Assembly (NCBI GenBank): GCA_037190765.1
Contig: JBBCJW010000097.1
Span: forward strand, 1-24,000
Direction: 5' to 3'
From: Alphaproteobacteria bacterium
GTDB lineage: Bacteria > Pseudomonadota > Alphaproteobacteria > Reyranellales > JAQSWP01
Length of the DNA stretch: 24,000 bases
In this document: one piece after another, positions 8,415 through 14,481 of the stretch
How positions within the stretch are numbered: position 1 is the stretch's first letter
Layout: the number at the start of each line of letters is the position of its first letter
The notes under the pieces: generated by a model
Database searches by the model: none
What the model saw: the letters and a program-made list of their open reading frames with translations, nothing else
What the model was told of the DNA's origin: nothing
Program-made: the position numbers and the translations under genes

Positions 8415-9104
8415 TCAGGCGGCGCCGGAAGGCAAGCCGATGCGCAAATTGATGCGCACCCGCTTCACACCCGGAATCGCCTCCGCCAGCGCCGTCAGGG
8501 CGCGGACATGCTCTTCGGAGTGGGCGAAGCCGAACAACTCCACCACCCCGTCCCGCACCAACGTCTGCAGATAAAGGCCGCCGGCCCAGGACTCGCGGTT
8601 GATCCGCTTGTCGAGCTCGGCACGCAGCAGGTCGTCACTGGCGACACCCTCCGGCTCCGCCGGCGTCTTTGCCATGAAGGCGCGGACCAGGTCGCGACGG
8701 CTGACGATGCCGACCAGGCGGCCCTCGCGCGTCACCGGCACGCGCTTGATGTGCCGGCTTTCGAAAATATCGGCGATCTTGCTGAGGTCGGTATCCTCGT
8801 CGACGCAGATCACCTGCCGCGACATGAGGGAATGCGCCTTCACCGCATGCGAGCGCCGGTAATCGCGCGCCAGGGTGTCGTTGTCGGCGATCAGCATGCG
8901 CCAGCGCGAGCGCTTGCGGTCAGTATCGGTTTCGCACCGGCGCATCAGATCGCCCTCGCTGACCAGCCCCACGATGTGACGGTCGTCGTCGACCACCACC
9001 ACGGCGGAAATGTTGCGTTCGATCAGCAGCTTGGCGATCTGCTCCACGCCCGCCTGCGGTCCTACCGTGCACACGTCGGTGGTCATGATGTCGCGTGCGA
9101 GCAT
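8415..9104 (-). CDS. CBS-pair plus BON domain protein
   Basis: Two CBS-like modules are present (MTTDVCTV...ISAVVVVDDDRHIVGLVSEGDL and MSRQVICV...IKRVPVTREGRLVGIVSRRDL). The C-terminal segment is BON-like (LQTLVRDGVVELFGFAHSEEHVRALTALAEAIPGVKRV). The ATG at 9104 is preceded by AAAGGAGGA. Confidence 0.8.
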   Translation of the reverse strand: MLARDIMTTDVCTVGPQAGVEQIAKLLIERNISAVVVVDDDRHIVGLVSEGDLMRRCETDTDRKRSRWRMLIADNDTLARDYRRSHAVKAHSLMSRQVICVDEDTDLSKIADIFESRHIKRVPVTREGRLVGIVSRRDLVRAFMAKTPAEPEGVASDDLLRAELDKRINRESWAGGLYLQTLVRDGVVELFGFAHSEEHVRALTALAEAIPGVKRVRINLRIGLPSGAA

Positions 9105-9163
9105 TTTCTTTCCTCCTTTTTCCATGCGTTTGGACAAACTATCCGGATGGCGAAGATGGCGAA

Positions 9164-9177
9164 TTGATCGCAATCAA
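9164..9177. promoter_or_regulatory. Perfect FNR/FixK (CRP-family) box TTGATCGCAATCAA
   Basis: The sequence matches TTGAT-N4-ATCAA exactly. It is centred at 9170.5. TAGTTT on the minus strand (9141-9136) and TAAATT on the plus strand (9201-9206) are both placed as -10 elements of class II (-41.5) promoters. Confidence 0.65.
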
Positions 9178-9222
9178 AGCGGCAAGGCTCGTTCGGACGT
9201 TAAATTGTCGCTAATTGGAACT

Positions 9223-9493
9223 ATGGCCGTAAGACCAGATTTTCAACCCGAGCGAGGTTTCTCACCAACCAGCCAAAGAGAAGAAGTCGGAGCGCGAGGA
9301 GAAGGACGAGAAGAAGAACTACCACCTGCTGGAGCGCAGCTTCGGCTCGTTCCGCCGGTCGATCGCGCTCGATGCCGAGGTCGATGCCCGGAACGTCAAG
9401 GCGACGTTCGACAAAGGCGTGCTGAAAGTGGTGCTGCCCAAGAGCCAGCAGCAGCCGGCGCGCTCGACCCGCATCGAAATCTCTCGCGCCTGA
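9223..9493 (+). pseudogene. Hsp20-family gene remnant (internal deletion/frameshift; only the C-terminal half of the alpha-crystallin domain survives)
   Basis: The frame 9233-9493 reads ...KEKKSEREEKDEKKNYHLLERSFGSFRRSIALDAEVDARNVKATFDKGVLKVVLPKSQQQPARSTRIEISRA*, a typical Hsp20 C-terminal half. It has no start codon and a TAA at 9230-9232 in frame just upstream. An ATG at 9223 sits in a different frame. The CBS gene leaves no room for the missing N-terminal half. Confidence 0.6.
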
Positions 9494-12600: not shown

Positions 12601-13080
12601 ATGAGCGAAGGCGCACCGGCGGGCAGCGGCCCCGACACCATCACTATCTATGTCGATGCCGATGCCTGTCCGGTGAAGCAGGAAATCTACAAGGTCGCGG
12701 AGCGGCACCGCCTGCCGGTGGTGGTGGTGTCGAACGCGTTCATCAACGTGCCGCGCGTGCCGACGATCCGCCTGCAGATCGTCGGCGAAGGCCTGAACGT
12801 GGCCGACGACTGGATCGCCGAGCACGCCGCCGCACAAGATATCGTCATCACCAACGACATCCCGCTGGCCGACCGCGTGGTGAAGAAAGGCGCGCTGGCC
12901 ATCGCCCCCAACGGCAAGCTCTACGACGCCAATTCCATCGGCATGGCGCTGGCTACCCGCAACCTGATGCACGACCTGCGCGAACAGGGCGCGGTCACCG
13001 GCGGGCCGAGGCCGTTCTCGGCGCAGGACCGGTCAAGGTTCTTGCAGGCGTTGCATGAGGCGATCATCAAGAAACAATAG
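12601..13080 (+). CDS. yaiI: YaiI/YqxD-family protein (UPF0178/DUF188)
   Basis: IYVDADACPVK...VVVVSN...VGEGLNVADDWIAEH...DIVITNDIPLADRVVKKGA.AIAPNG fits the family. It starts 13 nt after the thioesterase stop. Confidence 0.8.
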   Translation: MSEGAPAGSGPDTITIYVDADACPVKQEIYKVAERHRLPVVVVSNAFINVPRVPTIRLQIVGEGLNVADDWIAEHAAAQDIVITNDIPLADRVVKKGALAIAPNGKLYDANSIGMALATRNLMHDLREQGAVTGGPRPFSAQDRSRFLQALHEAIIKKQ

Positions 13081-13085
13081 CAGCC

Positions 13086-13886
13086 TCATATTTTATTCAA
13101 TCCCATTACGACGACGTAAGCCGAAGCACATTTGGAGCAGTTGACGATATTCCCAACCTTAATATCCGATTTCCAAATCGCTATTTTCCCGTCGCAATTT
13201 TCAACAGTGCATTCGACTTTCTCCTGCTCGAGATACCACCTTGTATCGCCTTTTGATCCAACAAGCTCATAGCCAGCCCCACAAACGTGGCAAGAAACCA
13301 TTCGCCGCCCTTCGCCGCCCAATGGAAGTCTTCTCAGTAGTCTGGCCCCGCAGCGATCACAGTCGATCTCGGAGGATGACCCCATTGAAATATTGAATAG
13401 GCGTGAGGAAAGAACTCTTTCAAGAATGTCGACGATCCTGCCACATCGCATCCGAACTGCGTCTGGACTTGGCTTAGCATCATCAATCAACTGTCGTAGA
13501 GAAGGCATATGAAGAAAGCTGCCTAAAGCATCGTAATGTTCTTTGATATTTTTTAAGGATAGGGACACCTCCGTCCCGACAGGAATCATCTTTGGCGCAG
13601 ATGCGCCAGTTTCCTCACCAATGCTTAAAGTCCCACTTTGATCTGCGTATGGATTGATCTCCAGTAGAGTAAGCATCAGCTTTTTTGGTTGCCACTTTTC
13701 GTAATCTGATCTGGTTAAATCTTGCTCGTATAGCCGAGCTTTATCGTAAATAACTGCCTCGATTGCTAAGCGCAGCTCAAGTGCAGCGTACTTGAGTCGT
13801 TCTATTTCGCCTGAGGCAAGCTCGTGCTTTGCGCGGCTTAGAGATTCTCTCGCGAGGTGGCGAAGTTCAATATTCCGAAGTGACAT
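13086..13886 (-). CDS. Orphan hypothetical protein encoded by the AT-rich island: helical N-domain plus two C-terminal zinc-ribbon-like Cys clusters
   Basis: An uninterrupted 266-codon ORF in roughly 40% GC DNA is unlikely by chance. The Cys motifs are CDRC-N20-CHVC and CTVENC-N17-CSKC. I prefer the ATG at 13886 (MSLRNIEL...), which sits 1 nt after the upstream gene's TAA. The track start at 13940 would overlap that gene. Confidence 0.65.
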   Translation of the reverse strand: MSLRNIELRHLARESLSRAKHELASGEIERLKYAALELRLAIEAVIYDKARLYEQDLTRSDYEKWQPKKLMLTLLEINPYADQSGTLSIGEETGASAPKMIPVGTEVSLSLKNIKEHYDALGSFLHMPSLRQLIDDAKPSPDAVRMRCGRIVDILERVLSSRLFNISMGSSSEIDCDRCGARLLRRLPLGGEGRRMVSCHVCGAGYELVGSKGDTRWYLEQEKVECTVENCDGKIAIWKSDIKVGNIVNCSKCASAYVVVMGLNKI

Positions 13887-13887
13887 C

Positions 13888-14481
13888 TTATCCCAACCCA
13901 AACTCCCCCAACTCTCTGATCCGCCCCAATCCAACATCAATCAACGTCAGCGTCTCGATCCTCCCCTTCATCGCAATCTCCTGGCGCTGCAAGCCCTGCA
14001 GCACGGCGCGCATCTCGGGCGCGGAGGCGGAGCGGCCGATGGTGATGTGGGGGGCGTAGGGCGGGTGTTTCGCGTCAGCGGGTTTGGCGGCGTCGGCCTT
14101 GGTGGCGGCGAGTGGGGCGTGCTCGTTTTCCGACAGGATGTCGGCGTTCAGCGACAGATGCAGGTCCATGATCTCCTGCCTGCCCTCCTGCGGTTCGAGG
14201 AAGGCATAGGCGACGCCGGGATCGACGTGCAGGGTCGTACGGCGCAGCACGAAGTCGATGGGCGCGGTCTCGTTGGCCACCGCCTCGACATGCCTGACCA
14301 GCAGGTCGTGGCTGTCGACCGGGCGGGCGAACACCAGCGTGATGTGCGGGCCGATGATGCCGGCCTCGGCCGGATGGTGCCGGGCGCGCAGGGAACGCAG
14401 CAGTTCCTCGTCCGCCGCCGCCAGCGCCGGGAAGGCGACGATGTAGAGGCCGGGAGCGGCGGCGGGCGGGCGGGTGCTCAT
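13888..14481 (-). CDS. 2H-phosphoesterase superfamily protein (LigT / 2'-5' RNA ligase-like)
   Basis: Two H-x-T-x motifs are present at the expected spacing (GPHITLVF and APHITIGR). At 197 aa the size is typical for the family. Confidence 0.7.
   Translation of the reverse strand: MSTRPPAAAPGLYIVAFPALAAADEELLRSLRARHHPAEAGIIGPHITLVFARPVDSHDLLVRHVEAVANETAPIDFVLRRTTLHVDPGVAYAFLEPQEGRQEIMDLHLSLNADILSENEHAPLAATKADAAKPADAKHPPYAPHITIGRSASAPEMRAVLQGLQRQEIAMKGRIETLTLIDVGLGRIRELGEFGLG

Follow-up and report, generated by a model that had tools for sequence, protein, structure and literature searches.

Between two convergent core genes of an alphaproteobacterial genome, yaiI and a 2H phosphoesterase gene, lies a recently acquired, promoter-less, single-gene insert at a site that is almost certainly an insertion hotspot. 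The insert occupies positions 13078-13893 of the 24-kb stretch analyzed here (contig JBBCJW010000097.1, positions 1 to 24,000; "the window" denotes this whole stretch), and its gene encodes a candidate defense or conflict protein, in which a predicted HEPN-like domain is joined to two zinc ribbons. The two main features are as follows.

13078..13893, no strand: horizontally acquired insert, delimited by the loss of homology to empty-site relatives at its edges and by composition
13086..13886, minus strand: 266-codon open reading frame (ORF) for the HEPN-like and double zinc-ribbon protein, with ATG at 13884-13886 and TGA at 13086-13088, supported by homologues and an AlphaFold2 (AF2) model

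A foreign single-gene insert at the yaiI/2H junction

The G+C content drops abruptly from ~0.66-0.70 to 0.44-0.52 over positions ~13050-13900. An earlier reading made from the letters of the DNA (the sequence-only reading) had noted this change from hand counts of 27/60, 23/60 and 43/60 G+C, each of which was exact on recount. The insert measures 816 bp with 47.1% G+C, compared to 68.0% for the remaining window, and its region is the lowest-G+C 800-bp stretch of the 24 kb. It is made up of an 801-bp ORF with 7-8 nt on either side, and nothing else lies inside. The ORF runs intact on the minus strand from ATG to TGA, as had been described, and the earlier view that it was improbable by chance is borne out by a probability of ~3e-6 for a stop-free run of 266 codons at the composition of the insert. 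Conservation across hundreds of homologues proves, at the level of sequence, that the ORF is coding. The public gene call, P0001, gives a 283-aa product from a TTG start at 13940, reaching 54 nt into the 2H gene (window 13887-13940); since the homologues start where the ATG at 13886 lies, this longer call is probably over-extended.

Relatives with an empty site were found by searching with the 2H protein, which gave matches 92-76% identical; a YaiI search of species-representative genomes for the same purpose was dropped, its best match reaching 65% identity with synteny not conserved. L-numbers are used below as labels for the loci of relatives and of family members. In L180 (2H protein 90% identical), the site is empty and 2H and yaiI converge across a 12-nt gap, and in the empty sites of L182 and L183 (78%) the two genes overlap by 4 nt. 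Global alignment to L180 showed homology over window 14066-13894 (87%) and 13077/13067-12900 (90-92%), and the L182 and L183 alignments placed the homology edges at window 13895 and 13062. The junctions were mapped to ~13077/13078 and ~13893/13894, hence an insert of ~816 bp.

These empty sites, together with the conservation of the family, refute the view, to which we give practically no weight, that the ORF is an old resident gene with an atypical composition, or that it arose by chance or is decaying; the absence of mobility genes is the only point in its favor. The flanks of the empty-site relatives are 83-92% identical in DNA to those of the window. G+C at third codon positions (GC3) is 0.45 in the ORF vs 0.88-0.94 in the four neighboring genes, and the nearest homologue of the protein is only ~50% identical and comes from elsewhere. 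Furthermore, in addition to the chance probability given above, the family-invariant residues and the eight ribbon cysteines of the window protein are all intact.

Three further relatives, L181, L191 and L192, hold other, AT-rich cargos at the same junction. In the closest relative, L181 (2H protein 92% identical), the site contains a DUF4238 gene (Pfam E 1.5e-15; L181:1010-1861, minus strand) on the opposite strand, the stop of which overlaps the 2H stop by 2 nt. The gene is split into 34-aa and 247-aa ORFs, and a frameshift, a stop codon or a mistake in assembly might account for the split. Strong phage T7 resistance was previously reported for a DUF4238 protein found in a P2 prophage hotspot (Rousset et al., bioRxiv 10.1101/2021.01.21.427644). 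L192 (77%) carries a gene for a 604-aa multi-pass membrane protein (L192:5584-7398, minus strand) of ~42% G+C within flanks of 67% G+C, which overlaps the 3′ end of the 2H gene by 14 nt and for which no Pfam, PADLOC or PDB match was obtained. In L191 (84%), the start of the cargo gene (L191:2431-2835, plus strand) overlaps the 2H stop by 4 nt, and the contig ends after 135 codons; the product gave no significant PADLOC or PDB match. Read by eye, this product contains the motifs WRNEATH (RNx3H) and EGSIK (Ex3K), which resemble canonical HEPN motifs. A relationship between it and the N-domain of the family studied here was rejected, with an hhalign probability of 0.9% against the N-domain profile. 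Because the junction is empty in some relatives and differently filled in others, it is an insertion hotspot, and we regard acquisition and hotspot together as nearly certain. The comparison with related genomes that the sequence-only reading had proposed thus yielded the empty sites it sought (L180, L182, L183), and its picture of a foreign single-gene island in a variable spot was upheld.

Neither a tRNA nor any Rfam match was found in the window, and no integrase or transposase was present among the genes flanking the insert, a screen that covered those genes only. Direct repeats at the junctions were not found; the only repeats were short, imperfect, at chance level and away from the junctions. 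The lack of a tRNA, integrase, transposase and obvious direct repeat agrees with what had been read from the letters. Terminator-like sites in the window did not exceed the level expected by chance, and none lay between the 2H gene and the ORF. The insert was therefore not assigned to the classical genomic islands or integrative elements, which are recognized by an integrase or transposase, a tRNA or att target, and flanking direct repeats.

An insertion this tight, with repeats, integrase and tRNA all missing, with an ORF bounded by 7-8 nt on each side and with different single genes at the same junction in relatives, would be explained if the gene encoded a free-standing homing-type nuclease, that is, a DNA-binding zinc-ribbon protein that cuts the empty yaiI/2H junction of relatives and is copied in by repair. 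We consider this very improbable. The protein has no similarity to known homing-endonuclease folds, and in the 76 loci surveyed below the family lies at unrelated sites among unrelated neighbors. Moreover, the other hotspot cargos (DUF4238 and the membrane protein) are not nucleases, and therefore it is the site, not the window gene, that makes the junction a hotspot.

A large family with a probable divergent HEPN domain

One search returned full-length homologues of the window protein in 48 clusters at 36-50% identity, and the family comprises 801 representatives at E<=1e-3 in a 50%-identity library. The N-domain profile gave 577 matches, none with any Pfam domain, and other domain fusions were absent from the 120 best profile matches. 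The hosts are scattered, with Alcaligenaceae, Chromobacterium, Pseudomonas, Janthinobacterium, Azospirillaceae, Rhizobiaceae, Phaeobacter and Gemmatimonadota among them. Family genes are often poorer in G+C than their flanks (mean -3.7 points), with a dip of more than 5 points in 25 of 77 loci. This is a large family (at least 800 clusters at 50% identity) without a current database model, best described as being of a known kind, namely a HEPN-type domain plus zinc ribbons in the style of a single-gene hotspot defense candidate; the window gene is a real, intact member of it and is not categorically new.

The conserved features of the family are AALELR39-x3-E43-x3-Y47, W65-Q-P, G104, Y-D119-A-L-G-S-x-L-H126-x-P, N165 and four CxxC-type cysteine pairs. 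R39, E43, Y47, Q66 and H126 are invariant at 30-50% identity; N165 is invariant in the long form and is replaced by G in some members of a short, Bub-linked form described below. AF2 modeled the full-length protein with pLDDT 93 and pTM 0.84, and the N-domain alone with pLDDT 88. The parts of the protein are listed below with their positions in the window, or with residue numbers for the secondary structure.

13383..13886, minus strand: N-terminal divergent HEPN-like domain, residues 1-168 (AF2 models, Foldseek, HEPN layout of PMC3710099)
Residues 8-24: helix H1 (AF2 models)
Residues 28-53: helix H2, with invariant R39, E43 and Y47
Residues 54-110: insert between H2 and H3, with a beta-hairpin and the WQP motif
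Residues 111-125: helix H3, with invariant H126 immediately after it
Residues 141-159: helix H4 (AF2 models)
13746..13772, minus strand: helix-2 motif R39-x3-E43-x3-Y47, invariant in the long and short subfamilies
13509..13532, minus strand: D119-A-L-G-S-F-L-H126 at the end of helix 3, where HEPN proteins carry their Rx4-6H motif; here Asp stands for Arg, and the His is invariant
13281..13361, minus strand: zinc ribbon 1, C176-x2-C179 ... C199-x2-C202, with Cys columns at least 90% conserved and beta-strands in the model
13128..13211, minus strand: zinc ribbon 2, C226-x4-C231 ... C250-x2-C253 (alignment and model), absent from the short Bub-linked subfamily

Alignment and model support the helical N-domain and double zinc ribbon that had been predicted, and the two Cys4 motifs were located at C176/C179/C199/C202 and C226/C231/C250/C253. 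We took the HEPN domain layout and motif positions of Anantharaman et al. 2013 (PMC3710099) as the reference, and the AF2 models show the arrangement of helices and insert of that superfamily. Foldseek matches of the N-domain in the PDB were mostly HEPN proteins, none at a significant E-value. When the N-domain was compared alone, the top seven matches were all HEPN (TM0613, 4nqf, the sacsin HEPN domain and HepT toxins), and AF_0298, ST0689 and PaREP1 2q00 came next; probabilities were 0.75-0.97 and TMt reached 0.61. Invariant E43 lies within helix 2 and may be the counterpart of the acidic residue conserved there in HEPN proteins; the spacing around it is R39-x3-E43-x3-Y47 with [KR]49, vs the typical Ex3[KR] of HEPN. 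On the basis of the confident AF2 model, the mostly HEPN Foldseek matches and the mapped motifs, the N-domain is probably a divergent HEPN domain. The DUF4145/HEPN-like impression of the sequence-only reading was supported in its HEPN half by Foldseek and the HEPN layout, and failed in the other: DUF4145 membership (PF13643) was rejected because 0/48 members match that model at E<=1.

At the motif position equivalent to the HEPN arginine, 184 family sequences have D (133), N (18), H (13), R (9) or S (5). All nine sequences with R belong to a short subfamily of 234-238 aa, in which the motif reads R-S-[LM]-G-S-F-L-H; this is a canonical Rx6H, its Arg being followed by a polar residue. HEPN families that keep the His without the Arg are on record, among them PaREP1/8 (including PDB 2q00) and c2405, and are thought still to be active via substitute basic residues; non-catalytic HEPN domains have also been recorded (PMC3710099).

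Generic zinc-ribbon Pfam models matched the ribbon region weakly and below threshold, and the full-length profile matched only zinc-ribbon ribosomal proteins among PDB sequences. Sub-threshold matches to IBR, the half-RING of RBR ubiquitin ligases (PF01485), were seen in the ribbon region of 20/48 members, with a best E of 3.3e-5. None of the members reached the gathering threshold of that model, and the window protein gave no IBR match. These matches may merely reflect cysteine spacing, curious as they are beside the Bub link of the short subfamily.

The family recurs beside defense genes and on mobile elements

The context survey covered 92 loci, 76 after dereplication, and found no conserved operon partner across the 76. 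The commonest neighbor family, present in six loci, includes tyrosine recombinases. The gene directly follows a Type IIG restriction-methyltransferase gene in 4/76 loci, and the defense-type neighbors comprise MmeI-type and giant Type IIG enzymes, DruE-like and DrmD-like proteins, a PifA-like KAP NTPase, AbiJ-like proteins, QatD, HamC, PDC-S06/S11 and HipA. The family thus takes the recurrent place beside defense genes or in variable hotspots by which defense genes are generally recognized.

The richest of these settings is in Chromobacterium phragmitis CP029554 (L003:1-16837), where the family gene lies between genes for a 1712-aa Type IIG enzyme (E 4e-246), which it overlaps by 8 nt, and a DruE-like helicase (2134 aa with DUF1998; E 2e-101), with UvrD downstream and a DrmD-like SNF2 helicase upstream. 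Judged by its predicted products, this locus is a composite defense operon. The giant Type IIG gene also precedes the family gene in L105 and L165, with a PifA-like KAP NTPase gene after it in L165. Plasmid copies (seven records) lie beside toxin-antitoxin pairs, integrases, a NACHT gene and an AbiJ-like gene; one family member begins 11 nt after an AbiJ-like gene. Seven IMG/VR viral contigs and one unverified phage record also carry the family.

A separate observation concerns the Allorhizobium plasmid NZ_CP049245 (L087:2249-7798), on which a co-directional run encodes a class I S-adenosylmethionine-dependent methyltransferase, a 'sensor histidine kinase' that we query as a GHKL-type ATPase, a 409-aa protein and, last, the family protein; a PemK/Phd toxin-antitoxin pair and an integrase follow. 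This run may be another uncharacterized defense module.

The plasmid and viral-contig records, the integrases and toxin-antitoxin modules near family members, and the strongly foreign composition of the gene would also suit selfish cargo of mobile elements, namely a self-contained addiction toxin or an anti-defense protein that sits on this chromosome by chance. We hold this to be improbable: no antitoxin-like partner or nucleotidyltransferase (MNT) gene is adjacent, Chromobacterium and its relatives hold the gene inside chromosomal defense operons and not in phage early regions, no PHROG family matches, and the viral-contig matches are few vs more than 200 metagenome loci.

A short subfamily with the canonical motif lies in Bub loci

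The short subfamily, with its single zinc ribbon and canonical R-x6-H, occurred in Type I Bub ubiquitination-like loci of rhizobia in 5/5 clusters examined. In four of the five, the short-form gene comes directly after UvrD/nuclease-BubAB-BubCD-BubE, and in the remaining one it follows a pair of helix-turn-helix and Peptidase_M78 genes, divergent from the Bub genes. Co-location with Bub markers (Multi_ubiq, Prok-E2_E, JAB, ThiF, DUF6527) was a property of the short subfamily only, and Bub genes were absent from among the window gene's neighbors, a screen that covered DUF169, 2H, YaiI and 4HBT only. The Bub-linked short-form genes are the following.

L176:4959-5675
L177:4974-5690
L184-L188:7001-7717
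L189/L190:7001-7705

The Bub papers report no effector and no phage phenotype (Bub operons: Ye et al., PMC11601596), and the short-form gene is unmentioned in those that we searched. Identification of the N-domain with the Ser-His protease of Bub systems was rejected because that protease is DUF6527/BubE, a separately encoded beta-sandwich protein. A far-reaching combination would make the short Rx6H form the missing effector or conjugation target of Bub, the long D-x6-H form an autonomous derivative with a substitute active site, and the junction an integrase-independent hotspot that captures promoter-less, ORF-sized defense cargos expressed from the upstream host gene, the three jointly defining a new class of immune effectors made of a single protein; we regard this combination as distinctly unlikely.

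The distribution of the motif also bears on the possibility that the HEPN-like domain is catalytically dead and that the protein serves, without enzymatic activity, as an adaptor, sensor or regulator for Type IIG, DruE-like or Bub systems. The window protein would then be an accessory orphaned from its partner, or would work with unlinked systems. D, N, H or S replaces R in 175/184 members, with Rx6H confined to the Bub-linked clade, and the genes are tightly coupled (-4 to +14 nt) in operonic fashion to varied upstream genes (Type IIG, BubE, AbiJ-like and others). Zinc ribbons are typical interaction modules, with the weak IBR-type matches in 20/48 members a further hint in this direction, and the HEPN survey includes non-catalytic domains (PMC3710099). 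Nevertheless, we consider an adaptor unlikely, given that ~70/76 loci have no recurrent partner and that the invariant polar residues R39, E43, Y47, Q66 and H126 (and N165 in the long form) resemble an active or ligand-binding site. Moreover, the HEPN families that lack R and retain H are thought to be active through substitute basic residues (PMC3710099).

A candidate stand-alone defense or conflict effector

Building on the observed insertion, hotspot and family, on the HEPN-like fold with its motif layout, and on the recurrent defense and mobile-element contexts, we propose that the protein is most likely a stand-alone effector in defense or conflict, acting by abortive infection. Its zinc ribbons would bind or sense nucleic acid or a foreign protein, and the HEPN domain would then act on RNA through invariant His126, with the helix-2 cluster R39/E43/Y47 substituting for the motif Arg that is replaced by Asp119. 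Expression would arise by read-through from the DUF169-2H unit and by translational coupling to the upstream 2H gene, because the insert is promoter-less and its ATG, with GGGTTGGGATAAG ahead of it, is 1 nt downstream of the 2H stop. The 2H gene is the likely source of transcription for the insert gene.

We lean towards a defense or conflict role for the protein, which its context favors, and judge the stand-alone effector reading as a whole, mechanism included, to be evenly balanced. RNase chemistry specifically is doubtful, as the catalytic Arg of Rx4-6H is missing from the window protein (D119-x6-H126).

Several further points weigh against this effector reading. All of the fold matches are statistically weak (Foldseek E 0.2-2); matching among four-helix bundles is promiscuous, and the Foldseek lists include designed bundles as well. 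PDB chains are not linked to the protein at the sequence level, the N-domain profile giving no PDB match at E<=10, and no HEPN-clan Pfam model matched the 48 members at E<=1. Neither the window protein nor the 48 members matched any Pfam, NCBIfam, PADLOC or PHROG model (PADLOC-DB v2: 0 families at E<=1), and the literature search turned up no paper on this family. With no match in Pfam or NCBIfam, clear homology to a well-characterized housekeeping family, a finding that the sequence-only reading had named as contrary to its proposal, did not emerge. Many neighbors of family genes are ordinary housekeeping genes, and by a rough count ~10/89 immediate neighbors match defense models; the proposed check of whether homologues lie in defense islands came out positive for some loci, which adjoin defense genes, and negative for others. 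Promoter-like sites were not found in the window, and expression in the source genome is assumed. The defense-type role suggested earlier is consequently favored by context, finds no counterpart among defense models, and is unproven.

If the effector reading is confirmed, a sizeable family (at least 800 clusters) would become a new HEPN-type candidate immune effector, offering a lead on the effector of Bub ubiquitin-like systems via the Rx6H subfamily and a lead on how HEPN domains without the catalytic Arg work. The locus itself documents a very compact hotspot, in which ORF-sized foreign genes sit between convergent stop codons with no recognizable recombinase, and which is useful for understanding the movement of small defense genes.

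Flanking genes

The two neighbors of the insert had been named correctly as yaiI and a 2H phosphoesterase gene, and a 4HBT thioesterase gene and a DUF169 gene lie beyond them.

12601..13080, plus strand: yaiI (DUF188), core gene, convergent with the insert gene (Pfam E 1e-47, NCBIfam E 1e-56)
13888..14481, minus strand: 2H phosphoesterase gene (2_5_RNA_ligase2), core gene, directly upstream of the insert gene (Pfam E 1e-17)

The tight spacing reported earlier was reproduced: 5 nt (CAGCC) separate the yaiI TAG from the ORF stop, and 1 nt separates the 2H TAA from the ORF ATG. The accompanying idea that the 3′ ends of both neighbors had been replaced proved essentially wrong. The C-terminal tail of the 2H protein, ...LIDVGLGRIRELGEFGL, is kept in 13/13 relatives, empty-site ones included, and comparison of the relatives' loci indicates that the lower G+C of this 3′ end is native; homology extends to 13894 on the 2H side and to 13077 on the yaiI side. 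The Lys/Arg-rich yaiI tail with its lower-G+C codons also occurs in the closest relatives, L180 (empty site) and L181, and the yaiI tail of the more distant empty site L182 is G+C-rich. The window YaiI is a few residues shorter than 79/80 distant homologues, which run 1-21 residues longer. As far as the alignments tell, the yaiI tail is native apart from about the last codon and the stop, and in the neighbors no more than the final one to three codons, together with the stop codons, appear to differ.

YaiI gave a weak PIN-like match (PIN_9, E 0.008). HEPN RNases leave 2′,3′-cyclic phosphate ends, the kind of end on which 2H proteins act; here, a putative HEPN-type gene is placed between 2H phosphoesterase and YaiI/DUF188 genes (12601-14481). 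This arrangement is probably coincidence, because empty sites have the two flanking genes as core genes too. Elsewhere in the window, positions 8976-9400 form the sole other stretch below 55% G+C; this patch is intergenic, upstream of a CBS/BON-domain gene (8415-9173, minus strand), and looks like an ordinary promoter region.

Comparison with known systems

Among known systems, the HEPN superfamily (Pfam clan CL0291) is close, especially its families with His but no Arg (PaREP1/8, c2405). The family studied here has in common with it a bundle of four helices, formed by two alpha-hairpins and interrupted by a large insert after helix 2 and before helix 3, and, in one subfamily, the Rx6H motif; the best structural matches, weak as they are, are HEPN proteins. 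The window protein differs in having Asp for the catalytic Arg, R-x3-E-x3-Y in place of Ex3[KR] in helix 2, a beta-hairpin and an invariant WQP in its insert, and a tandem ribbon pair at the C-terminus, and no sequence or profile match to HEPN Pfam models or PDB chains is significant. HEPN-zinc-ribbon fusions are known from restriction-modification operons, namely DUF4145+ZnR, Abi2/Swt1+ZnR and EC042_2821 (PMC3710099); the present family resembles them in joining the domain to zinc ribbons and in having members in or next to restriction-modification and Abi genes. HepT of the HEPN-MNT system HepT/MntA (PDB 7bxo, 6m6w, 6m6u), a small mobile HEPN toxin, is among the best fold matches, whereas the window gene has no adjacent nucleotidyltransferase antitoxin gene and its product lacks the canonical Rx4-6H and carries added zinc ribbons. 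Bub operons are related to the family through the short, single-ribbon Rx6H relatives that lie in them, in contrast to which the window protein has two ribbons and no Arg.

The insert, for its part, resembles an integron gene cassette in being promoter-less, single-ORF, tightly packed and presumably expressed from upstream, and integron-borne HEPN cassettes are known (PMC3710099). Unlike such cassettes, it lacks an attC-like structure, as there are just 5 nt beyond the ORF stop, and it has no boundary inverted repeat, integron integrase, attI or array. The remaining comparison is with single-gene hotspot anti-phage systems of the DUF4238 and AbiJ types. The window family has no sequence relation to these and matches no PADLOC model, but the window gene, like them, is stand-alone, AT-rich and sporadic, and in the closest relative, L181, a DUF4238 gene fills the same junction.

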